From a virus (taxonomy: Duplodnaviria; Caudoviricetes): DNA of 64,000 nt. This document shows, piece after piece, positions 31,535 to 64,000 of the stretch. Position 1 is the stretch's first letter, and the number at the start of each line of letters is the position of its first letter. A program made the position numbers and the translations under genes. The notes beneath the pieces are model-generated. The model searched no databases. It saw only the letters and a list, made by a program, of their open reading frames with translations, and was not told the origin of the DNA. The DNA is taken from positions 34,301-98,300 of IMG/VR virus record IMGVR_UViG_3300028591_000142; one strand, given 5' to 3'.

Positions 31535-34500
31535 TTATTTACTAAGCTTAGTAAATTCCTTAAGCATCATCTCGACGCTTTCACGTTGAGCCCTACGCAT
31601 CTGAGACACGGTTTGAGAGTCTGCGTTCCCATTAATGGTAATTGGACTCATAGTAATATTATTAACTATGGCACTACCACCAATCTTACCAAGTGCATTA
31701 TTACGCAATAACTCTGATAATAATCCAGAAATCACAGCACTGCCATTGTTAGCAAATTCATACAAGAATTTACTTGCACTAGCATTAAGAACCTTTTCGC
31801 CGCCGGTAAACATTTTATACCTATTACCGTCTTTCGACTCAAATATTGTTTCGAGACCGTTTTCGTCTACACCGTGTAAACCCCGGGTGGCGTATTTTGT
31901 ACCACTGGCATACCCAACAATATCACTTTTCTTTATCCATCCAAGCGGGGTGCCACCTTTTTTATTTGAAAGATTATATGCGTGCGTACCCTTCTCGTTG
32001 GTAAGAACAATATATCCATAACCGTCTGTCAGATAGGATTCTGCATTACCAGACGCTCCACCACCGTATGAATTAGCATACCATTTTGTTCCAGATTTGA
32101 CCTTAACTTTTGAGCCAACTGTTAATGACGGAGCGGATGTCGTAGATTTTGTCGTAGATTTTGCTGAACTACTAGATGAGCTTGTATTAGACTTACCACT
32201 AGACGAGCTGCTAGACTTACTACTTGAACTTGACTTACTGCCCGTTGACGGCGCTTTATATCCTGTTGCGTTTTCAAGATGAAAGTTTTTATAATACTTA
32301 CCATAGGCTGTGTAATAATCATCAAGCGCTTTATATGCGTCTTCCCAAGCGGTTTTAATGGTATTATCAATACCATCACCATATTTCCGGTTCCACCCAA
32401 GCATCTCCTCATATAACTCAATAGAACCATTCTTAACATCTGTTAACGCTTTTCTATATAACTCACCCTCGTTTGCTAACTGTTCTTCGAGGCGTGTCAT
32501 ACGTTTATTATATAACTCTTCCTGTGCTTCATACTCTTTGTCAAGAGTATCCTGCATCGCCTCAAGCCGATGGTCTTTTTCAAAATCATCGAGTTCTTTT
32601 TGCGCATCTGTAAGCTCTTGAGCAAGCTCCAACTTCCTTTTCTGAGCCCACGCCGAATCGTCAAGTGATAATTGTTGAATTTGAGCCTCGATGTCAGATA
32701 CAGTTTTACGCTTTTCAATTTGCTCTTCGAGATATTTATCTTCGTCATAAGCATCTTGCAGCATTTGTTTTTGCTTATCATAAAACTTTTTAAGCTCATC
32801 TAACTGGTCTTTTAAATTGTCTTTTAGCTTTTGTAAGTTTTGTTTAAGCATCTTGATTCTTATCTGAACCAGGTTATTAGTACTCTTTTCGGCGTTATCA
32901 CGCAACTTTTCCATACCATTAAATACTTCTTCCTCGTATTTATAGTATTCGCTAAGCGTTATTTCTTTTTGCTTGTAAGCCTCTTTATAAGCACTTTTCA
33001 ACCAAACTAAAAATTGGGCTTCTGTTTCTTTGCCCATCGCGACTTGATGCTTGTGGTATTCATACATCTGCTTAAAAATGTTGTCTTCATCATCTTTTTT
33101 AGACTTAGAACTACCACTACTACCACTACTACCACTACTACCACTACCGGTCTTAGCATATATATCTTTTAAAGATAATCCCTTTAATGACTCAAGATTA
33201 TGGATTGCGTTTAATGTATTGGCTTTAATTTCTTTTACTTGTTTGATTCTGCTCTCAGAGGCATCCTTCTGATTACTTATCCAGTCATTTACACTTTCTC
33301 CGCCAACAGTAACGACGTCTCCGCCAAAATCAATAGATAGGGTGCCACCGCTCACTCCTCCAACATCGGCAACTCCTTTAAAATATGAGAGTACTCCTCC
33401 CTCATCGACATTACCACTGAGGACATCTGAGATTAAATTTTTTAACGCACCCCAAAGATTACTTGCAATTCCTGTTAATTTTGTATAAAGTTTTGAAGAA
33501 TAATCATTTACAGCTTGTAGACCAGCGCTTAATCCTTTTTCGTGAGACTGTTTAACAACAGACGCGTATGGAGTCCAGACGTGTTCGTTTGATTTCTTGC
33601 CGAAGTCTGCACCCTGTTTAAGTTGGTCATTCAGAGCTTCTTCATTTACTTTTAATTCACCGTCTTGAAGTTCTACATAATTTTGACCTTGTAAATCATT
33701 TAGCTCAGTTACCTTATTTAAAAATTCCTCTTCCTGTGCTACCTTACCATTTACGGTCATATTTTCAAGTTCTGTAATGATATTTGCCTTTTGTTCTTCT
33801 AAATCAAGCTGATTATCAAGAACTTGAGCCGTTGCCTCTAACTCTTTAATCTTTGCATCTATCTTAGCATCGTACTCTTGTTCTTGCATATCTAAGATAG
33901 CATTTAATGCATTCTTTTGAGCCTCAACGCTACCATCGGCAAGAAGATTTTCTTGTTGAAGCAACTGCGGATACATTTCAATCAGCTCAAGAAGCTCTTG
34001 CTTAGAAAGCTCAGTACCCTCTGCAAGTTTAGACATAGCCGAAGTAACTTTATCAACACTGTTTGCTAACGAATCTAATCCAGACATTAATTCCGTTACA
34101 TTGAGTGGCTCAATCATTTCTGCAGACGCATAACGTATTTGGCGAACCTTTTCCTGTAACTCATCTAGTGATATAGAATTATTATCCGCAACTATATCAT
34201 AAACAAAATTAAATTCGTCACTAGTTAATCCGTTTATATATGTCTCAATATCTTCGGCACTACCAGTAATGTTATCTTTAACATATTGAACGTCTCGGTC
34301 AAAATCATCAAGGTCTAACTGTATTTCAATATTTTTTAACAGATTCCCATCTACACCAGCGTCTTCTAGTGCTTTTAATATATATTGAGATACATCAAAC
34401 TCTCCAACAGTTAATTCACCAGATTCAAATGCAGAGCGCATATCAAACAGCGCATACATAGCTTCTTGCACCTCTGGCTTTGCCTGTACGATTGGCTCCA

Positions 34501-52431: not shown

Positions 52432-53457
52432 TTATATTTCATCAAACCCCTTCTTAGAAGGAACAGAAATATCGCCGTCTTTGAAATACATACCTATTTC
52501 TTCGTCGGCGTCAATGTCTTTATATATCCTAACCATATCCCCGGATTCCCAAGACACAATACTCTGAATTACGCCATCGGGTATACCCGCCTTCGCAAGA
52601 CTTGTAGTAAAGTAATGACGAAGACTGTGAATATACGCGGGCTTGCCAGATAATCTGGAGAACGTATTACTCCAACTATTAATGGTCGAGATGCTTACAT
52701 ATTCATCAGCATTTTTTGAATTAGGGAATAGCCATTCGCTTTGAATTTTGTTTTGTTTCCTATAATTCATCCACATATCAAGATACGGTTTGAATTTCTT
52801 AGCAAGTGTGTAACAGTGTATCATCTTTCCGCCGCCACGACCTTTTGTTTTTATTGGAGCGCTCTTATATAAAGCGCCGTCGCAGACAAGCTTATCATCG
52901 TCAAAGTCAGAGACTTTATATCTGCAAAGCTCTGCCTTACGTCTACCACTGTACATTGCAAGAGCAAGATAACAAGCCTTCTCGTAATCTTTTCGGTCAA
53001 CAAGTTTGGCTAATAATTCATCCAACTCTTCGTCGCTCCAGACTGTCTTTTCTCTAACCGGTCTATTTACCGGATTCTCAACCTTGTTGATTATATTTCT
53101 AAAGTTAGGGAACTCGTCGTCTAAAACTGACTCAATATAGTTACTTAAAGAAGATAACGCAGCCTTTAACCTTCTTATACGAGCCGGACTGTTTTCGTTA
53201 TTCTCCAATAACCAATTTTGATACGCAACAATATTTCTCTTAGTCCAGTCTACAAAAAACTTATTGTCGTTATTTTGTAAACACCAAACCCAAGCGATAA
53301 GAATATCGTTTTCATATCCATATATTGTTGTTTCACTTCGTTGTATTGAACGAAGGTAATTTATAAAGTCCCGTAATAGTTCATTGTTTTTGGGGTTAAT
53401 TTGTGCAATCAATTCGGGACTTGTGATATTATTCATCTTGGTCTTACGAGCCAACAC
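52432..53457 (-). CDS. Tyrosine recombinase 2 (XerC/D-like, SAM-like N-domain)
   Basis: SGRRKAEL, HSLRH, W at the H/W position, RIY. Confidence 0.88.
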   Translation of the reverse strand: MLARKTKMNNITSPELIAQINPKNNELLRDFINYLRSIQRSETTIYGYENDILIAWVWCLQNNDNKFFVDWTKRNIVAYQNWLLENNENSPARIRRLKAALSSLSNYIESVLDDEFPNFRNIINKVENPVNRPVREKTVWSDEELDELLAKLVDRKDYEKACYLALAMYSGRRKAELCRYKVSDFDDDKLVCDGALYKSAPIKTKGRGGGKMIHCYTLAKKFKPYLDMWMNYRKQNKIQSEWLFPNSKNADEYVSISTINSWSNTFSRLSGKPAYIHSLRHYFTTSLAKAGIPDGVIQSIVSWESGDMVRIYKDIDADEEIGMYFKDGDISVPSKKGFDEI

Positions 53458-56054: not shown

Positions 56055-58775
56055 TCAAACCATCTCCTTTGTCTCAGTCTTAAATTTCTTACCTTCAAAT
56101 TCAACATCACCGTCGGGGCTCATTACCGGATACGATATTATGTTTCCGTTATTCTTTAATAAATTATTTATTATCTCGTCGCCGCACATACTCCAGGCAA
56201 ACTGTTTGGTTGAATTTCTTTTGTAGCAAATATCAAGAATAATATTACAAAGAGCCGATTCATTAGGACATATCTTATGGCATTCTTTCTGAAAGTCGTC
56301 GTTTATAACAGATAGTGTCATAAATGATTCCGTATCCGGAACTCTTTCGTAATCGGATAACACCGCGTAACTTTTAAGTCTCTTATTATATTCTTTATAA
56401 AGTTTAAGTATTGAGTTATATTGATGTTGCATATATGGCGCATCGCTTTTCATAATCGTATAATCAAACGGATTATTTTTATTATGCTTTCCTATATGCC
56501 CGTCAAACTCGTGTTCGAATCGCTTGCATATTTTATTCATTACACAATCGTTTGTTCCAACCGGAAGTCTATAACCATAATACCTTAAAAACTCTTCTTG
56601 CCTCTCGGTGCGCTCTTCCTTTGGAATACTCTGTAGCTCCGATACTGTCATTTGAAATTCTCTTAATGCATTACTGTTTGTATTTTTAATATATGTATTA
56701 TATTGTTTCATTAAAGATGGATATATGTATCTCATAAAATATGGTTTCTTGTCTGCCACAATCTCTCTATATAATTTCCGGTCGTACTCGTCTTCTATTT
56801 GATTAGCGAACCTTCTGTCGTGCCAAGAACGCGGCATTGGTTTGCATACAATTCCTTTTGCCTTATCAATAGAGTTCTGCTGATATAGCTGTCCGCATCT
56901 AATACGATATGATAGAGTCTCATATTCTTGAGAATCAGGTTCATATCCGGCTTGGACTTCAAACATACTTGTAATCCAATTTGTAGTTTGTCCAATCTCG
57001 TTGCCGAAGCTGGCTATATTTGAGCTTACGAAATCTCCTTCAGTCGGTACTACCTTACCGGCCTTCCTTTGAGCGCACACTAAAGCAGGGAGGGGCTTAA
57101 GCTTATTTACCAGCAGCTTATTATCCGTTAACATTACAATGTCTCCGTCAAAGTCCGCTCCGTTTAAAGCTGATGTTATCGTGTCCCAAGAGTTAAGTAT
57201 TGTGCACGTTGTCATATACTGATACCAATGTTTTGCCTTATCACTGTTTACCGGATGTACAAGTCGTATATTGTTATGACAAGTCATTGGTGCTCTGAAA
57301 CACGCAAGTTTATCTGCACCAATATCAGCCCAATATTTGTTGTAGATTTCACCTTTTGCCAAAATACCTGTCTTTTCAAGACCAAATATACTCTGGCATA
57401 AAAGGTATGGGTCTCCTGAAATAATGGAATAATTTCCGTGAACTTTAATTACCCCCACCTTAGCCTCATTTATTCTGTTTTTAATAAGTCTGTATATATT
57501 ACTCTGAACAAATGGGTCGTTAAGCATCCTCTTATCTATCATTATAGCCTTGATATAATCGTCATCTATCCTATCAATCATTCTTTCGATACCAAGACCT
57601 TTTACGAACAATACCGTATCTCTCCAGTCGCCACCGAGTATACCGCTTATTTCCTTTATTGTAGGAGCAATAAGCTCTTCGATATCCTCATCTGAAAAAT
57701 CATAGCTTTGGATAAATTGATAATTCAAACTTCTTACGCTTTCAAGTTCCTCGGGGCAAGCCTTTGTTACACCAAACGTATATCCATTTTTTAACGAAGA
57801 TTCTAAATAATCATTACAATCTTTGTAACTATCCCATAGTTTTACCATAGAAGTTGTAAGAATTAGTTCGACATTTCTAATATCTACTGTATTTCCCCAC
57901 GCATCTTTAACAAAATATGTATGAGCGACATTTTCTGCAAAATCCAAAAAGTCAAATGTAAAAGCCATTCCTTTTTCGAAAGCGAACCTTGTATTTACTC
58001 CGCTAACTAAATAATCGAGCTCTAGTTCTTCACTCCATCGCTGTGCTAAAGAGGGGAGCATTAACCCGAACCCATCAGACGCATTTAGCTTTACAATATA
58101 ATCTTTTATATATTCCATCTCCGGCTCTTCGTCGCCCTCGTCTGTTAGATAAAGGACGTCTGATGTAAACTCCGTTTCGGCGTCGTTAACAATTAAAATT
58201 CCATTTGGTGTTGATACCGGAGTGGACGCGCTACACGTTAATGCCTTATATGCCTCGAGCTTCGCGGGTACGTGTTCCTTTTCCTTATCTCTGTCGTTAT
58301 CAATTCGCCTTCTTAATTCCGGCGCCAATCTCTCTGAAACAAATACTATTGTTGAATTTTTAATACCGCCGTTTGTACCTAACAGTCTTACGTATTTTAC
58401 ACCGTTGATAACGAACCCATTAAGTGCTCTGCGGTAATCACTATTCTTGTCAATGATTAAACACATATAGTCTTTTTTAAACTGAAGATTATCAAGCTCG
58501 CTATATAACTTTCTTATCTCTGTCTTGTTTGCGATATTATTGGGTTGTTTCTTTAAAGCCTTTATCTTACCCTTAATATTACGAGCCTTATCATCAGCAT
58601 CAACAATGCCGTTTAATTCGTCTATCCATCTTAATATCTGACTATCAGCAAGAGCAATAACTTCATCATTACGTCTTGCTTCGTCTATAGATATTGTTAA
58701 GTCCCACTTATTATTTCTTAAACGACTAGTATGAATTTTAAATATGTATTTCTGACAAGTCAGTTGTTTGCTTAT
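56055..58775 (-). CDS. YonO-like single-subunit (double-psi-barrel) RNA polymerase; frame extends to an ATA at 58775
   Basis: SDGFG, RAP and catalytic NGADFDGD; frame open 103 codons above the ORF-track ATG, with AAGGAG RBS. Confidence 0.88.
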   Translation of the reverse strand: MSKQLTCQKYIFKIHTSRLRNNKWDLTISIDEARRNDEVIALADSQILRWIDELNGIVDADDKARNIKGKIKALKKQPNNIANKTEIRKLYSELDNLQFKKDYMCLIIDKNSDYRRALNGFVINGVKYVRLLGTNGGIKNSTIVFVSERLAPELRRRIDNDRDKEKEHVPAKLEAYKALTCSASTPVSTPNGILIVNDAETEFTSDVLYLTDEGDEEPEMEYIKDYIVKLNASDGFGLMLPSLAQRWSEELELDYLVSGVNTRFAFEKGMAFTFDFLDFAENVAHTYFVKDAWGNTVDIRNVELILTTSMVKLWDSYKDCNDYLESSLKNGYTFGVTKACPEELESVRSLNYQFIQSYDFSDEDIEELIAPTIKEISGILGGDWRDTVLFVKGLGIERMIDRIDDDYIKAIMIDKRMLNDPFVQSNIYRLIKNRINEAKVGVIKVHGNYSIISGDPYLLCQSIFGLEKTGILAKGEIYNKYWADIGADKLACFRAPMTCHNNIRLVHPVNSDKAKHWYQYMTTCTILNSWDTITSALNGADFDGDIVMLTDNKLLVNKLKPLPALVCAQRKAGKVVPTEGDFVSSNIASFGNEIGQTTNWITSMFEVQAGYEPDSQEYETLSYRIRCGQLYQQNSIDKAKGIVCKPMPRSWHDRRFANQIEDEYDRKLYREIVADKKPYFMRYIYPSLMKQYNTYIKNTNSNALREFQMTVSELQSIPKEERTERQEEFLRYYGYRLPVGTNDCVMNKICKRFEHEFDGHIGKHNKNNPFDYTIMKSDAPYMQHQYNSILKLYKEYNKRLKSYAVLSDYERVPDTESFMTLSVINDDFQKECHKICPNESALCNIILDICYKRNSTKQFAWSMCGDEIINNLLKNNGNIISYPVMSPDGDVEFEGKKFKTETKEMV

Positions 58776-58828: not shown

Positions 58829-59029
58829 TTAAAAATCCGATATATATTCTTCCCAGGCTTCTCTATACTCTTCTCGCCCGATTTCAATCATCTCTTCAAG
58901 TAAGTTATCATCCATAAATTCTGGGTGCATAACCATATCTTCAATCATCTCCTCTAATTCATCAATTGCTTCATCAAACAATTTATCAATATATGTATCC
59001 CAATATATAAAATCGTTTTTATAATCCAA
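58829..59029 (-). CDS. Small highly acidic protein
   Basis: GGAGGTG RBS plus TTG 59029; 24 of 66 residues are D/E. Confidence 0.6.
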   Translation of the reverse strand: MDYKNDFIYWDTYIDKLFDEAIDELEEMIEDMVMHPEFMDDNLLEEMIEIGREEYREAWEEYISDF

Positions 59030-60272
59030 TTGTTTCACCTCCTTCACTTCCAAGACTTTCTATCCATTTGTTTAATAACATTCTCATTCTTTTACTCGGT
59101 ATGTAAATATAAATTTCTTTGCCGTCTCTTATAGCAGAACGCCATATCCACTGAACCATTACAGATGTTGCGTACGCGTCCGTATCTATTGTTGTTCCGT
59201 GAGCTTTATAAAAACTCTCTTCTGCAATATTCATAAATATATTTACTGCATATACAAGGCAATACTTATCTCTATAATTATTCGTCGCTTTTGTATTAAA
59301 CGACAAGAAGTTTCGTGTGTATCCCTTTCCTTGTATTTTTGTATGTTCGTTCTTATAGCAGCCCCACAACTTTTTATCTCTCGGCACATCCCTCCAGATA
59401 TTATTGAAGTAGTTGGCTATGTTCTTCTGGAGCTGTTCGATTTGCCTACCATTCTTTTTAAACCAGTTCATTGATAACGCAAACTTGCCATTGCCAATTT
59501 CATTCATTCTTTCATTATCGAGAACGTGTATCATATTTGATATATTCTTGACATATTCAGGTACATAAAACTCCGTATCACTAAACGAATACACACCGTC
59601 TTCCGATTTCTTAACACCTATATATTCATAAGGTATATTGTATATCTTCAAGAAGTGGTGTAAGCTCTGACCCTCGAATAAATATGTTAGTATGTACACA
59701 TCTTTAAACGCAGTTATAAGGTCAGGGGGGAGAGCCCAGTAATAAAGATTATCTCCCTCGCCGGTATCCATTCTTATTAACTCTCTTGATTTAAGAAACC
59801 GGAATAATTCGGATAATGCCGTACCGTGATACTTATCATTTACTATTGAGTACACATTGTTCTCATACTTTATATACCCGGCATCAATAGCTATTTGAAG
59901 GTCGTCCGGGTGACACTCAAACTTTTCCAATACATCAACGTTTTCATCAATTATCAGAACGTATCCCTGTTCACGAATATCATCAAGCATTTCCGGTGTG
60001 TAACTCTTAAACGCCTGGTGCGTGGTCGTAATATTACAACCTTTCTTTATCAGAGCCGCTGTGTGTGTTGTCTTTTTAAAGTTATATTCAGATAACTTAT
60101 TGTTTGGTTCAACAAATTTTCTACCCGGACACCCCTTACGCACCCTCGCAGCTTCTTCGAGGTAGGGGGTAATGTAAATACATTTTTGTTCTGGGTGCTC
60201 GTTCAGAAAAGTTATTGCGGCGCTTGATTTACCGGTACCCATTATGGCACTACAAACTCTTACCACACACAC
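59019..60272 (-). CDS. SF2 helicase-like P-loop protein
   Basis: MGTGKS Walker A, LIIDE Walker B, QWIWRSAIR motif-VI-like. Confidence 0.72.
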   Translation of the reverse strand: MCVVRVCSAIMGTGKSSAAITFLNEHPEQKCIYITPYLEEAARVRKGCPGRKFVEPNNKLSEYNFKKTTHTAALIKKGCNITTTHQAFKSYTPEMLDDIREQGYVLIIDENVDVLEKFECHPDDLQIAIDAGYIKYENNVYSIVNDKYHGTALSELFRFLKSRELIRMDTGEGDNLYYWALPPDLITAFKDVYILTYLFEGQSLHHFLKIYNIPYEYIGVKKSEDGVYSFSDTEFYVPEYVKNISNMIHVLDNERMNEIGNGKFALSMNWFKKNGRQIEQLQKNIANYFNNIWRDVPRDKKLWGCYKNEHTKIQGKGYTRNFLSFNTKATNNYRDKYCLVYAVNIFMNIAEESFYKAHGTTIDTDAYATSVMVQWIWRSAIRDGKEIYIYIPSKRMRMLLNKWIESLGSEGGETIGL

Positions 60273-60319
60273 ATCACCTCCGCTCTATATATTAATTTAC
60301 GTATTAACAACTTATCACC

Positions 60320-60550
60320 TCATCCGAACGACCTTTGCGCTTCTTCTAATGTAGGATACCACCTGCATCCCCATTCGGCCGCAAAATATTTTCCGGTATC
60401 GTCCTTCTCTATATATCCTCGTCCGGTACGTTTAATAAATTCTTTGCAAGCGCTTAAAAATGTATTACCGTAACCGACACCTATAAATCTTGCACCGCAC
60501 TGATTACCAGTAATAAAATATCCTTCCTCGTATATATCCCACTCTTTCAT
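60320..60550 (-). CDS. Hypothetical protein
   Basis: GGTGGTG RBS; in operon. Confidence 0.6.
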   Translation of the reverse strand: MKEWDIYEEGYFITGNQCGARFIGVGYGNTFLSACKEFIKRTGRGYIEKDDTGKYFAAEWGCRWYPTLEEAQRSFG

Positions 60551-60562
60551 CTTATCACCACC

Positions 60563-61426
60563 TTATCCTACCTGCTCGCCGTATTCAACGATTTTACTAT
60601 TAATTAAATAGTTATGTTCAAGACTGCCAAGATTCAGAGCTCTGTATGCTTCGTCAATTTCCTCAGCCGTTATACCAATATAATCAAGCGTCTGGGCGGG
60701 GGAGGAGTGGTTAAGCATTTTCTGTAATAACAACAACTTTCTAGGGTCGTTGTGCGACATTAACATCTGATGATAGCAGAACGTCTTTCTGAGAGTATGC
60801 GACGATACTTTCATATTTAACCCTAAATCATCAGCTATACCTTTAAGTATATAGTTAACCGACTTAGGAGTTATAGGTACATTTTTACTACCCCCGTGGT
60901 TTGATTCACTACGGAACATATAATCACTAAGGCAAACGCCGGGCGTGTTCTCTAAATATAATGTTACCGCCTCAATTACCGCTGTATTAATTGTAATATA
61001 GCGGTTCTTTTTCTTCTTCCTTGTATTCCTGGTCTTCTTCTCAAATACAGGGAAAGAATCCTTAAACGTAAAGTTCTCATTTATTAAATTGGAGAATCTC
61101 AACATTCTGAGGTCACTGACTCTAAGTCCAAAGTTAATACCGACGATAAACAGCATATTATCCCTATACCTTTTATTATTAATAAGGTACTGCGAGATAT
61201 CAATGATATCATTCATACTCTTTATGGGGTCTGCCGCGTTATCGGGTGCAATATCCTCAACTACCTCCTCTGATGCCGGAGCTATAAGACCCGTTGCGAG
61301 CTTCTTATTATTTAACTTAAGCGCACTGATGTCAATTACATCATTAGCACTGTTAATTTGGTCATTCTGCTCTGAATGATAAAGTTGAACCTCTCTGTTG
61401 AATTGTATAACTGCCACTAAACTCAT
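60563..61426 (-). CDS. Tyrosine recombinase 3 (catalytic domain only)
   Basis: GLRVSDL, HTLRKTF, LNH, DYIG motifs. Confidence 0.88.
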   Translation of the reverse strand: MSLVAVIQFNREVQLYHSEQNDQINSANDVIDISALKLNNKKLATGLIAPASEEVVEDIAPDNAADPIKSMNDIIDISQYLINNKRYRDNMLFIVGINFGLRVSDLRMLRFSNLINENFTFKDSFPVFEKKTRNTRKKKKNRYITINTAVIEAVTLYLENTPGVCLSDYMFRSESNHGGSKNVPITPKSVNYILKGIADDLGLNMKVSSHTLRKTFCYHQMLMSHNDPRKLLLLQKMLNHSSPAQTLDYIGITAEEIDEAYRALNLGSLEHNYLINSKIVEYGEQVG

Positions 61427-61853
61427 CCTTTCATTCGTGGTAAAAAGTGATTAATATTTACAACGTTTAAAATACAATTTACAACCACCAAGGTTGTAAA
61501 CCTTTTTTCGAACCCTTATATATCAAGGCTTCCCGGGTTCTGCTTATAAAAGAGAAATACCATCTCTAATGTATACTGAAACAACTATAAAAAGCGTTGT
61601 TAAATATATACATTATAATATACCATTGCTTTGCTAAAGCATCGGTCAATATCTATTGTTTTAAATATTTAATTATTAAAATTAATTTGTCCAATAGATA
61701 CTTAAAAACGAATGTATTTATCCTTTACCATACTAACCGGTTCCGGCTGCGCCGGAGAAGTGACTTAGTCACTGACCAAGTCTGACCGGGCTTGCTAGAA
61801 TAAAAATGTCCTATACAAAATCCACTTGCGTATACTATTTTGGGTACGATAAC

Positions 61854-61882
61854 AGTATACCACAGGTATATATGTTTGTCAA
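61854..61882 (-). promoter_or_regulatory. Near-consensus sigmaA promoter (leftward)
   Basis: Minus strand TTGACA-17 bp-TATACT with extended TG. Confidence 0.75.
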
Positions 61883-62237
61883 GTGTTTTTAGGAAAAAAG
61901 TTTAAAAATTTTTCGTGGTTTTATCTTGGATAATTAAGATTGGTTGTTACTGATTTTTATAATACTGTTTTTTCAGAATCCGGAGCTTTTGCTATAAAAA
62001 ATAATACGGTTGTTATCGTGATTCAAATGTTAAAAAACACCGATTTATCAAGGGTTGTCGGAAAGTATTTTTTGGGATGTGGGAGATGAAGGGACTAGGC
62101 TCGTTGGCGTTCAGGCGTTCGCATAAAATACCATAATCACCCCGTTATCAATGTTTGATAGTGTTAAAATTGAACATTAAAAACAAAGGCACAAAAAACA
62201 AAAAATAATTGTATTATATTACATAAATAAAAAAGCG

Positions 62238-62266
62238 TTGACAAACAGACAAATATATGATATATT
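62238..62266 (+). promoter_or_regulatory. Near-consensus sigmaA promoter (rightward) with A-rich UP element
   Basis: TTGACA-17 bp-TATATT with TGn extension. Confidence 0.75.
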
Positions 62267-62339
62267 ATCATTGACAATTTGAAACGAACGCCTTTTCGTT
62301 TCATTGTCAAAAAATATTTATTTCAAGGGGGTTGTTTCT

Positions 62340-63830
62340 ATGAAAACAACAAACACAAAGGCAAAGGCAAAGGCAAACACTCAGGCGAAAAAGGAAACGA
62401 ACGAACGCCCGTTCGTTACCGAAAAGGCAAACACTCAGGCGAACACAAACAAAAATATTAAAAAGGACGTGGACGAAATGACAAACACAAAGGCAAACAC
62501 TCAGGCAAAGGCAAACACTCAGGCAAAGACAACGGCAAACACAAAGCGAATTGAAAAGGCAAAGGCAAAGAATGACGAACGCCTTGCCGAAACGTTTGCA
62601 AAGATTTCGGCAAAAATGGACGTTGATAACGTTATCAACGAAAAGGCAAAGGACGTATGCCGAATGTATATTCAATTTGGCAAGAATTCACCCGAATTCG
62701 CTAACGCCCTTTACAGTTTATCGGCAATTATATTCGGGTGTAAATTGAAACATTATCGAAATGCAATAAAGGACGTTACCGAAAACGGCAACGAATGGGC
62801 AACGAATGGGCAAAACGGCAAATATAAAGCGTTGCTAAAACTAACGGACGAAACGGCAAAAATATTCACCCGAAAAGGCGAACAACGTTGCATTATGTTC
62901 GTTAATGAATTGGACAAACTCTATAAATCACGTTACAAAAAAACGGGCGAATATGTTTGCGAATGTACGGACAACAAACAGGCAAAGGCAATTACCGAAC
63001 GCCTTGCGGACGTTTCTATATATTCGGGTGATGGGTTGGCAATTATTCACGAAATAATATGCGAAATTATAACAAAGTTAAACACTTTTGAAAACGTGGA
63101 CGAATTGGCACTAATACGCCCGTATAAAACGTTGATAAACGAAAAACAGAACGGCAAAAAAGACGAATTAAAACAATATAAATATACGAACGTTATAACA
63201 GAATGTTACAACGTTATCGAACGTCAATTCGTAAACGAACGGGCGTTCGGTTCTGCTAACGTTCTGGCGTTTGAAACTATACCCGAAAACACACCCGACC
63301 GAACGAATGTTCGGGTGGCTCATAGGTGTTCGGTGTACGTTGACGGGCAAGGTTTTTCGGTTGATATTGACGCTGAAAAAATCATTCGGGAAATTAGGCG
63401 TAAATGCACGTTTACAGAATTGGAAAAAGACGTTTTTATAAATTATCTGTTACCCGTTGCGGACAATAGAAAAAAGGAAACATATTCAACTATTGCCGAA
63501 CGTAACAACGTAACAGAACAGGCAATAAAAAAGGCGTTGCAAAACGTGCGTATTAAAATAGTAAAAACGGGCGTTTTCGGTGATAAATTGGCAAACGTTG
63601 AAAACGTTACAAAGGGCAAAACGAACGAACAAAAAACAAAGTATATCAACGTTTACGAATATTTACCGAACGACAAAGGGCGAAACGTTAAAACGTTTAT
63701 AACAACGTGCAAAGGCGTTCGGGCAACGGCAAAGGCGTTCAATGTATCCCCCGCAAGTGTTTCCTTGTGTTTATCGGGTGAACGTGGAATTTGTAACGGG
63801 CTTATTTTTGAATTGGCGAAAACAGAATAA
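62340..63830 (+). CDS. Putative DNA-binding protein: KANTQA repeats, sigma-region-4-like HTH, NUMOD1-like C-terminus
   Basis: TELEKDVF...TYSTIAERNNVTEQAIKKAL; VRATAKAFNVSPASVSLCLSG; GGGGG RBS before ATG 62340. Confidence 0.65.
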   Translation: MKTTNTKAKAKANTQAKKETNERPFVTEKANTQANTNKNIKKDVDEMTNTKANTQAKANTQAKTTANTKRIEKAKAKNDERLAETFAKISAKMDVDNVINEKAKDVCRMYIQFGKNSPEFANALYSLSAIIFGCKLKHYRNAIKDVTENGNEWATNGQNGKYKALLKLTDETAKIFTRKGEQRCIMFVNELDKLYKSRYKKTGEYVCECTDNKQAKAITERLADVSIYSGDGLAIIHEIICEIITKLNTFENVDELALIRPYKTLINEKQNGKKDELKQYKYTNVITECYNVIERQFVNERAFGSANVLAFETIPENTPDRTNVRVAHRCSVYVDGQGFSVDIDAEKIIREIRRKCTFTELEKDVFINYLLPVADNRKKETYSTIAERNNVTEQAIKKALQNVRIKIVKTGVFGDKLANVENVTKGKTNEQKTKYINVYEYLPNDKGRNVKTFITTCKGVRATAKAFNVSPASVSLCLSGERGICNGLIFELAKTE

Positions 63831-63844
63831 TAACAACAAACTAA

Positions 63845-63877
63845 AAGGGCGAACGTTCAGGCGTTCGCCTTTTTTTT
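63845..63877 (+). terminator. Rho-independent terminator
   Basis: AAAGGGCGAACG...CGTTCGCCTTTTTTTTT. Confidence 0.75.
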
Positions 63878-64000
63878 CGGGCGTTCGGTTACGTGTTTAC
63901 ACCCTTTTAGTGAACGGGTTTTCGTTCACGTTTCGGGCGTTCACGTTCGGGCGTTCGGTTACGTGTTTACACCCTTTTAGTGAACGGGTGTTCGTTCACG
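63876..64000. repeat. 70-bp-period direct repeat running off the window edge
   Basis: 55-bp unit at 63876-63930 and 63946-64000 with one mismatch. Confidence 0.88.

Follow-up and report, generated by a model that had tools for sequence, protein, structure and literature searches.

A biased 2-kb segment in a sheep gut phage genome as a probable recombining cassette of a sigma-like regulator and its sites

What is a segment of about 2 kb doing in a phage genome when it abruptly adopts a DNA vocabulary of its own? Such a segment lies at the right end of the stretch analysed here, the 64,000 nucleotides at positions 34,301 to 98,300 of the virus record IMGVR_UViG_3300028591_000142 ("the window"), which are the last 64 kb of a 98.3-kb viral contig from a sheep gut metagenome, and it contains one large open reading frame (ORF), P0001. 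An initial annotation had taken it for the leading end of the packaged genome, either purged of defence target motifs or carrying binding sites for a protective or translocating protein. We find that the compositional observation is real and highly significant, and that the stretch from window position 62095 to about genome position 190 is most likely one self-contained recombining cassette. We put the probability at roughly 0.55 that this cassette is a phage-type-specific transcription switch, in which a sigma-like regulator is bracketed by, and its gene partly written in, its own site word.

The counts bear out what had been reported by eye. On the + strand GAG, said to be missing after about 62100, is absent for 2196 nt, from window position 62083 through the contig junction to genome position 279 (the runner-up in the genome is 861 nt), and CCA, said to be missing after about 62135, is absent for 2033 nt, also through the contig junction (runner-up 785 nt); both runs are about 2.5 times as long as any other in the 98.3-kb genome. 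Compared with the coding-strand background of the remaining genome, the 2086-nt segment contains 0 GAG (33 expected), 175 CG (78), 59 CGTT (6.6) and 40 ACGT (4.8), while CGAACG/CGTTCG occurs 27 times in the 2.1-kb segment and 13 times in the other 96 kb. The codon preferences described for the large ORF are equally clear, with GAA for all 41 Glu codons (67% in the background) and CGN for 21 of 24 Arg codons, against a background of 33% CGN and 48% AGA. The biased stretch extends about 190 nt beyond the window end, into the contig start.

Two controls separate this bias from the protein that the gene encodes: in one the protein was held fixed and the genome's codon usage applied (recoding), and in the other the synonymous codons were permuted within the gene. 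Recoding predicts 21.8 GAG, 57 CpG, 1.4 CGAACG or CGTTCG and 0.2 GGCGTTC or GAACGCC in the gene, where 0, 120, 14 and 6 are observed, so that the reported enrichment of GAACG, CGTTC and GGCGTTC holds; permutation predicts 0.9 GGCGTTC or GAACGCC against the same 6 (z = 6 for GGCGTTC). The depletion is strand-asymmetric, with the complements CTC (6 observed, 7.1 expected) and TGG (16 observed, 13.5 expected) close to expectation in the gene. The 5-mer complexity of the gene lies far below both controls (z = −10.6 for recoding, −9.9 for permutation, and still about −8.9 after removal of the N-terminal repeats), whereas for 23 other genes of this phage, taken as controls, the median z is about −1 under either test, with minima of −4.9 (recoding) and −2.9 (permutation). 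Moreover, the coding part and its own non-coding downstream flank have 150 7-mers in common, against 78 ± 11 after permutation (z = +6.6). Translational codon selection is ruled out as the cause by an ordinary effective number of codons (47.7).

The segment is organized around this gene as follows (window positions).

61854-61882, minus strand: leftward sigmaA-type promoter, 11/12 match plus TG extension, hexamers conserved in relatives
62073-62198, plus strand: non-coding element between the divergent promoters, primary sequence conserved in 24 of 33 relatives; it contains a conserved 17-nt box (62080-62096), a AAAATACCATAA box and a 7-bp inverted repeat (62150-62178)
62094-62096: left cassette border, a mosaic breakpoint at which alignments of about 90%-identical relatives stop
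62106-62122, plus strand: two upstream GGCGTTC copies, in the variable spacer of the 62073-62198 element
62238-62266, plus strand: rightward sigmaA-type promoter of the cassette gene, 11/12 match plus TG extension
62274-62313, plus strand: palindrome or 5'-leader hairpin centred on a CGAACGCC word, beginning at about the transcript start (read from the sequence)
62340-63830, plus strand: coding sequence of P0001, 496 amino acids (aa), from translation
62402-62415 and 63236-63249: in-gene palindromes CGAACG-NN-CGTTCG (word positions)
63240-63252, plus strand: in-gene 13-nt exact copy of the array core (core matching)
about 62403, 62577 and 62997 (inverted), 63714 and 63734 (direct): in-gene 7-9-nt core copies (core matching)
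63848-63877, plus strand: intrinsic terminator, a CGAACG/CGTTCG stem followed by T8
63876-64000, plus strand: start of a 70-bp tandem array of about four units, running over the contig junction to genome position ~165-190

The two promoters are the divergent, near-consensus pair described by the initial annotation. The reported switch near 62.1 kb is a sharp one, the onset of the bias coinciding with the mosaic border: in a comparison of the window with Logan contigs (not raw reads) from the source sample and three other gut metagenomes, relatives of about 90% identity from the latter align up to 62094-62096, after which two continue with unlike sequence and the third contig ends. This border falls 10 nt to the left of the first upstream site copy. 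Copies of the core of the putative recognition word, GGCGTTCG, are found upstream (two), in the leader and the terminator (one each) and in the downstream array (about eight), each 70-bp unit of which holds two GGGCGTTC words and a GTGAACG-N6-CGTTCAC palindrome (a 7-bp inverted repeat). A 15-mer at 62108-62122 is repeated in the terminator arm at 63854-63868; the terminator scan listed the hairpin at 63848-63869 as minus-strand only, and the plus-strand reading is that of a palindromic stem and T8 run from the sequence. Core copies inside the gene occur in all three reading frames, and the Shine-Dalgarno sequence also avoids GAG. The ORF further contains a perfect 20-nt palindrome, at window 62621-62640, that encodes DVDNVIN.

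The array continues into the other end of the contig. The 70-bp repeat holds both contig start and contig end, and the gene 3' of it shares 46% identity with the one after the homologous module in L006, a related 116-kb locus in which the module is internal; the contig ends therefore join through the repeat. Its k-mer depth in the source sample is about three times that of the flanks.

Relatives show that the pattern belongs to a family. More than 100 related loci were fetched through the conserved neighbouring gene for a P-loop protein with a YonV_C domain, which was used because the family alignment is too divergent for back-translated locus searches, and the family hidden Markov model (HMM) was then run on them. 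It finds the gene in 34 of these loci, always in identical synteny, and the module is carried by about 30 of the 100+ uncultured ~100-kb phage loci, of ruminant and human gut Clostridia. In 32 of 33 distinct members the 5-mer complexity of the gene falls far short of that of the phage it belongs to (median z −6.5), and it lies below the recoded control in 30 of 30 (median z −8.2) and below synonymous permutation in 28 of 30. The direction of the bias is another matter: across the 33 members, the GC content of the cassette gene deviates by −15 to +12 points and its CpG observed/expected ratio (O/E) ranges from 0.27 to 2.07, and the syntenic gene of locus L003 is the reverse of that of this phage, CpG-poor (O/E 0.17-0.37) and very rich in GAG and CAG. 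The L003 gene (L003:378-3287, minus strand) is a 969-aa variant, syntenic yet too divergent for the family HMM, with long AQAEAQ-type coiled-coil repeats encoded by words of its own 76-bp downstream array.

The arrangement of sites is likewise general. Nearly all members have a perfect tandem array downstream (2-6 units of 43-76 bp, 50-90 nt after the stop codon), and 20 of 32 loci have, upstream of the gene, one further direct-orientation copy of a 16-24-nt array word, with cross-locus matches of 8-9 nt. Coding 7-mers shared with the gene's own downstream flank exceed permutation with a median z of +3.2 (above 3 in 16 of 31 members); the shared words are scattered along the gene and, in relatives, mostly in direct orientation and hence strand-specific. 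The cassette gene in relatives always has a near-consensus sigma70-like promoter, about 100-140 nt upstream of the start codon, whereas the gap between array and next gene lacks one in 13 of 16 relatives with gaps of 0.4-1.2 kb, and none was found there in this phage. A profile search found no family member in phages PMBT24 and CB457P2. Arrays of this phage's site type were not encountered in the viral-contig scan (0), and the metagenome scan gave only single chance 17-mers in unrelated contigs; a described equivalent was sought in the literature, and none relevant was found.

Other sources of the bias were tried and rejected. An unstructured mRNA does not account for it, with this phage's mRNA more structured than the recoded controls and no consistent direction in 14 relatives; palindrome or hairpin density is not a family trait (median z 1.0), only three distinct palindromes being present in this phage. 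A dispersed promoter element was discarded on the finding that the eight GGCGTTC/GAACGCC copies outside the segment lie at scattered genome positions, and diversity-generating retroelement-type mutagenesis on finding no template/variable repeat pair at the cassette.

That the repeats are read by the cassette's own protein is supported most strongly by co-variation. In seven close relatives (the L075-L105 clade), three types of region-4 helix-turn-helix (HTH) pair perfectly with three site words, TTTCCTAGTGGG, TTTACCTTACGGG and TTTCCCCGTGGG, both in the copy that precedes the −35 hexamer by about 27 nt and in all array units. The pairing cuts across the phage backbone: the flanks of L078 and L080 are 95% identical and those of L088 and L105 96%, yet the types differ. 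The binding-site alternative in the initial annotation survives in that the segment is dense in site-like words, but these are best assigned to the segment's own HTH protein rather than to a protective or translocating one.

The protein has the following parts, all on the plus strand.

Residues 1-63: low-complexity tail of K/A/N/T/Q repeats
Residues ~95-310 (nt 62622-63269): helical, sigma2-like domain (fold matches, Z 5-6)
Residues ~335-417 (nt 63342-63590): sigma-70 region 4/LuxR-type HTH (profile and fold matches)
Residues ~426-496 (nt 63615-63827): I-HmuI/NUMOD-type HTH (Pfam and fold matches)

P0001 itself has no direct match in Pfam (below thresholds) or PHROG, a word-indexed protein search and a tblastn search against phages gave none, and a DNA similarity search of the region against the phage collection gave none either; an exhaustive HMMER search returned 17 distant homologues. 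Among 18 family members, NUMOD-like PF22083 is matched by 16, Sigma70_r4 or r4_2 by 6-7 and GerE by 6, and against the PDB the family profile retrieves LuxR/GerE and sigma chains with E down to 3e-5 (SdiA, VpsT, GerE and NarL included), plus I-HmuI. The AlphaFold model of P0001 (predicted local distance difference test, pLDDT, 72) matches the I-HmuI DNA-binding domain (I-HmuI residues 111-174) with Z 9.3, and residues 335-417 match many sigma region 4 structures (Z 6-7, root-mean-square deviation 1.5-4). A sigma-70 region 4 HTH is found in the family by Pfam, PDB profile and fold, and a GerE-type HTH by Pfam and PDB profile, with no receiver or ligand domain present. When the N-terminal domain was modelled alone (pLDDT 83), its matches included the sigma2 domains of SigI6, pro-sigmaK, T4 gp55, SigB, SigW, sigma28, SigC and AR9 gp226, which is suggestive of a sigma2-like domain. 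No HNH or GIY-YIG nuclease domain was matched in P0001 or its family, so that the likeness to homing endonucleases concerns the DNA-binding module only. ESM Atlas neighbours of P0001 are viral Sigma70_r4, ECF (extracytoplasmic function) and HTH clusters, a lead only.

From these observations we posit the following mechanism, in which binding and regulation by P0001 are predicted from sequence and models. The cassette gene would be expressed alone, from its near-consensus sigmaA promoter, and closed off by its own terminator. Its product would bind the site upstream of its own promoter, giving autoregulation, and the tandem array ahead of the rightward gene cluster of ~50 kb. That cluster lacks a sigmaA-type promoter and would thereby be switched on; the protein could act as an alternative sigma-like specificity factor or as an activator. 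Genes at genome positions 0.3-50 kb are on the plus strand and those at 51-96 kb on the minus strand, and the biased segment sits where the directions diverge. The leftward promoter serves an operon of a tyrosine recombinase, the YonV_C ATPase and a YonO-type RNA polymerase, followed by packaging and structural genes, so the two divergent sigmaA promoters may each deliver a transcription device, a YonO-type polymerase to the left and a sigma-like factor to the right. The recognition word and fragments of it would be written into the coding sequence through synonymous codon choice, and the k-mer anomaly would then be a small, site-derived vocabulary laid over a K/N/T/E-rich protein, because of which CpG, ACG, CGT and AACGTT are in excess and GAG, AGA, GAT and CCA are lost. 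The module would have an evolutionary history separate from that of the phage backbone, with protein and site diversifying together into a private switch for each phage lineage.

A stronger version of this proposal, which we offer tentatively and consider rather unlikely, makes the ORF of a master early regulator part of its own recognition array, with gene, leader, terminator and repeats forming one ~2-kb private-vocabulary block within a large clade of gut Clostridia phages that carry YonO-type polymerases. Two processes could keep up the private vocabulary: selection for a nucleoprotein or promoter array of which the coding DNA is part, or templated homogenisation that copies array words into the ORF.

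Several observations weigh against the proposed switch. The predicted site words fit no recognisable −35/−10 geometry, and the sigma2-like assignment is weak: the fold matches (Z 5-6.1, 85-99 residues aligned) are interleaved with dynamin stalks and other helical proteins, and Pfam Sigma70_r2 (region 2) is matched neither by P0001 nor by the 18 family members. In this phage the −35 hexamer and the upstream copy are about 115 nt apart, and the copy corresponds to the terminator arm, not to a complete array unit, unlike the copies in the co-variation clade. In that clade, in turn, the gene body has few array words yet low complexity, so embedded sites do not explain all of the vocabulary restriction, which reaches the folded domains even in members with few words common to gene and array. 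The viral-contig and metagenome scans turned up no relative with this phage's site type in which conservation of the in-gene sites could be followed. Perfect arrays of 43-76 bp, finally, resemble centromeres or iterons as well.

Comparison with described systems helps to place the cassette. With phage alternative sigma factors and LuxR/GerE activators (SPO1 gp28 and gp33/34, T4 gp55, autoregulated ECF sigma operons) it has in common a region 4 HTH and a possible sigma2-like domain, an early gene under a host sigmaA promoter, and predicted cognate sites at its own promoter and in front of the following block of genes; the co-variation of its HTH with the left part of the site recalls that of sigma region 4 with the −35 element. 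It differs from them in the extra C-terminal NUMOD-type HTH and long N-terminal low-complexity tail of its protein, in sites that form perfect 43-76-bp arrays and also lie in the gene, and in a specificity that is hypervariable among close relatives. The sopC centromere of the F plasmid consists of perfect 43-bp tandem repeats downstream of the SopB gene, and the cassette likewise has a perfect array directly downstream of an HTH protein gene, with a short inverted repeat in each unit, but it has no adjacent NTPase of the ParA, ParM or TubZ type, the neighbouring 249-aa protein showing no Walker motif by eye and no family match, and P0001 is outside the ParB family.

The main rival, which we think unlikely as the explanation of the cassette, is an iteron-type replication module, with P0001 as an origin-binding initiator and the upstream, in-gene and downstream sites as iterons and copy-control locus. 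A gene flanked by cognate iterons is the layout of incC-repA-incA in P1 and of incB-repE-incC in mini-F, and lambda O (ori iterons) and RepA_N plasmids such as pAD1 have an origin that is contained in, and co-varies with, the initiator gene. The cassette has the same topology of sites, gene and array, further cognate repeats within the ORF, a plausibly autoregulatory placement, and direct repeats flanking and inside the gene that co-vary with the protein; its specificity varies among close relatives, as it does for incompatibility determinants. It also lies at the point of transcription divergence and at the minimum of cumulative GC skew, next to a stretch of 31-33% GC, the adjacent tyrosine recombinase could resolve multimers, and Clostridium phage c-st, a distant relative, is a plasmid prophage. 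Against this, the domains are of transcription type (sigma region 4/LuxR, NUMOD), with no Rep, winged-helix initiator, helicase or primase signature; Pfam and PHROG gave no match to Rep_3, RepA_N or a lambda O-type initiator, and fold searches return sigma and HTH proteins. The turn in GC skew and the AT-rich stretch are confounded by the change in gene direction, a clear DnaA-box cluster was not apparent (by eye only) and no evidence of a DNA unwinding element was found, the repeat units of 43-76 bp exceed the 17-22 bp typical of iterons, and the upstream copy in relatives stands in an activator-like position beside the promoter.

We consider it improbable that the bias is purely historical, that is, a recent mosaic import of foreign composition, to which slippage or gene conversion involving the adjacent array (cryptic simplicity) was added, with no selection on the words in the ORF. 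In its favour, the mosaic border is sharp; at 99% flank identity, DNA identity of the gene is only 86-90% and protein identity 90-94%; the N-terminal coding part contains short tandem duplications; and array words are shared mostly in direct orientation in relatives. However, cassettes span 24-58% GC and CpG O/E of 0.27-2.07, values beyond those of every backbone in the set (GC 34-50%), and a simple exchange between these phages could therefore not have produced them. Low complexity moreover extends into the folded domains and, in 28 of 30 members, withstands comparison with synonymous permutation, and full 13-nt core copies stand in different reading frames.

Improbable too, in our view, is the proposal of the initial annotation that the segment is a packaging start or leading end of virion DNA, its composition due to defence avoidance or to sites for a protein on the incoming end. 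The sites GATC, GGCC, CCGG, GCGC, AGCT and CCWGG are all missing from the segment, as it had stated, and GAATTC is present twice, but the avoidance is genome-wide: GATC and CATG each occur 0 times against 336 expected and GGNCC 0 against 115, GGCC is threefold depleted, and GAATTC is depleted about tenfold in the remaining genome, yet two of the genome's five sites lie inside the segment. There is no local depletion of restriction-type palindromes relative to the remaining genome; palindromes are instead enriched, with 40 ACGT where 7.3 are expected and 13 AACGTT where 0.6 are (5- and 20-fold). GAG and CCA are depleted but their complements are not, a pattern that double-strand restriction would not produce, and relatives are oppositely biased. 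Avoidance of restriction sites or of a protospacer-adjacent motif was rejected on the same grounds, and the segment is better described as a swappable module than as DNA stripped of restriction sites for early injection, a purge not being supported. Local absence of a motif should not be read as defence evasion when avoidance is genome-wide. A relative, L002, has no GATC across 13 kb.

Other points favour a genome end here. The literature on SPbeta-like phages offers an analogy: their genome is opened between yonR and yonP, next to yonO (bioRxiv 10.1101/2021.11.22.469490), and one isolate shows about 2 kb of extra coverage past the pac site. A sequence-conserved non-coding element abuts the cassette, and many contigs of relatives, ~100-kb ones among them, terminate just past the gene; many near-full-length ones (94-137 kb; among L011-L113) start or stop 2-5 kb from the YonV_C gene, inside the tandem array. 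The best explanation of these contig ends, though, is that the tandem repeat breaks assemblies, which makes the array the group's systematic assembly breakpoint, and the module is internal in L006 and at least 15 other loci. A fixed leading end is further disfavoured by PMBT24, a distant relative of pac type whose genome is circularly permuted (PMC11035940), and TerL is 11 kb from the segment with candidate small-subunit genes beside it. The leading end of T7 (gene 0.3) and the first-step-transfer region of T5 are similar in having an early gene, strong host-type promoters, a genome landmark and repeats downstream, but here site avoidance is genome-wide rather than local, the segment is palindrome-rich, and the candidate end is placed by analogy.

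An assembly chimera joined at about 62.1 kb, suggested by the abrupt change of composition, by a contig that starts and stops in a repeat and by its classification as linear (IMG/VR) and 83% complete (CheckV), can be practically discounted, since 59000-63905 is spanned with zero differences by a separate Logan contig of the source sample, and over 30 relatives have the same gene order, which continues past the array to the following gene.

The conserved element at 62073-62198 stays in place although the cassettes to its right are unrelated, and it lies outside the transcripts of both mapped promoters. Its hairpin shows modest covariation (79.5% of cells paired against 69% in shuffles, a value reached by 0 of 500 shuffles), with some compensatory changes in the inverted repeat; RNAalifold gave no consensus structure for the element, and Rfam no match to it, only a sub-threshold isrP over the terminator. 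It is a candidate conserved DNA site, be it pac, ori or regulatory, and a pac site here is possible by analogy. In L075-L105 and other loci, long non-coding gaps 3' of the arrays contain further conserved blocks, hairpin-like and similar to the upstream element's own hairpin, which may be non-coding RNAs or additional sites.

The surrounding genome is that of a phage with a long tape measure protein, TerL and portal; a crAss-like phage is ruled out by the tape measure protein and by a YonO homology that points to SPbeta and Enterocloster phages. The YonO-type single-subunit RNA polymerase gene lies at window 56055-58466 (minus strand), its 803-aa product sharing about 42% identity with the polymerases of Enterocloster phages and of Clostridium phage c-st, and the RdRP Pfam family is matched in relatives. 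The YonV_C P-loop protein (417 aa, window 59019-60272, minus strand) has six homologues with a mean column identity of 74%, and homologues also occur in Clostridia, Bacillaceae, Acinetobacter and alphaproteobacterial genomes. Two tyrosine recombinase genes are present on the minus strand, at window 60563-61426 and 52432-53457; the former adjoins the cassette and is missing in some relatives (L002, L008). The SPbeta master repressor is recombinase-like, and a repressor role is by analogy conceivable for the tyrosine recombinase of this phage.

Read as a transcription switch, an unexplained compositional island becomes a defined regulatory module, and a probable switch is identified for half of the genome in these phages, while the array explains why their assemblies break at one place. 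The natural HTH-site pairs, three types within one clade, could be used to derive recognition rules. Site words that shape synonymous codon choice along a whole gene would bear on gene finders, on host predictors based on codon usage and on detectors of horizontal transfer. If the ORF is indeed part of the recognition array, specificity would switch only as a block, and the family would represent a new way for DNA-binding specificity to constrain synonymous sites family-wide.

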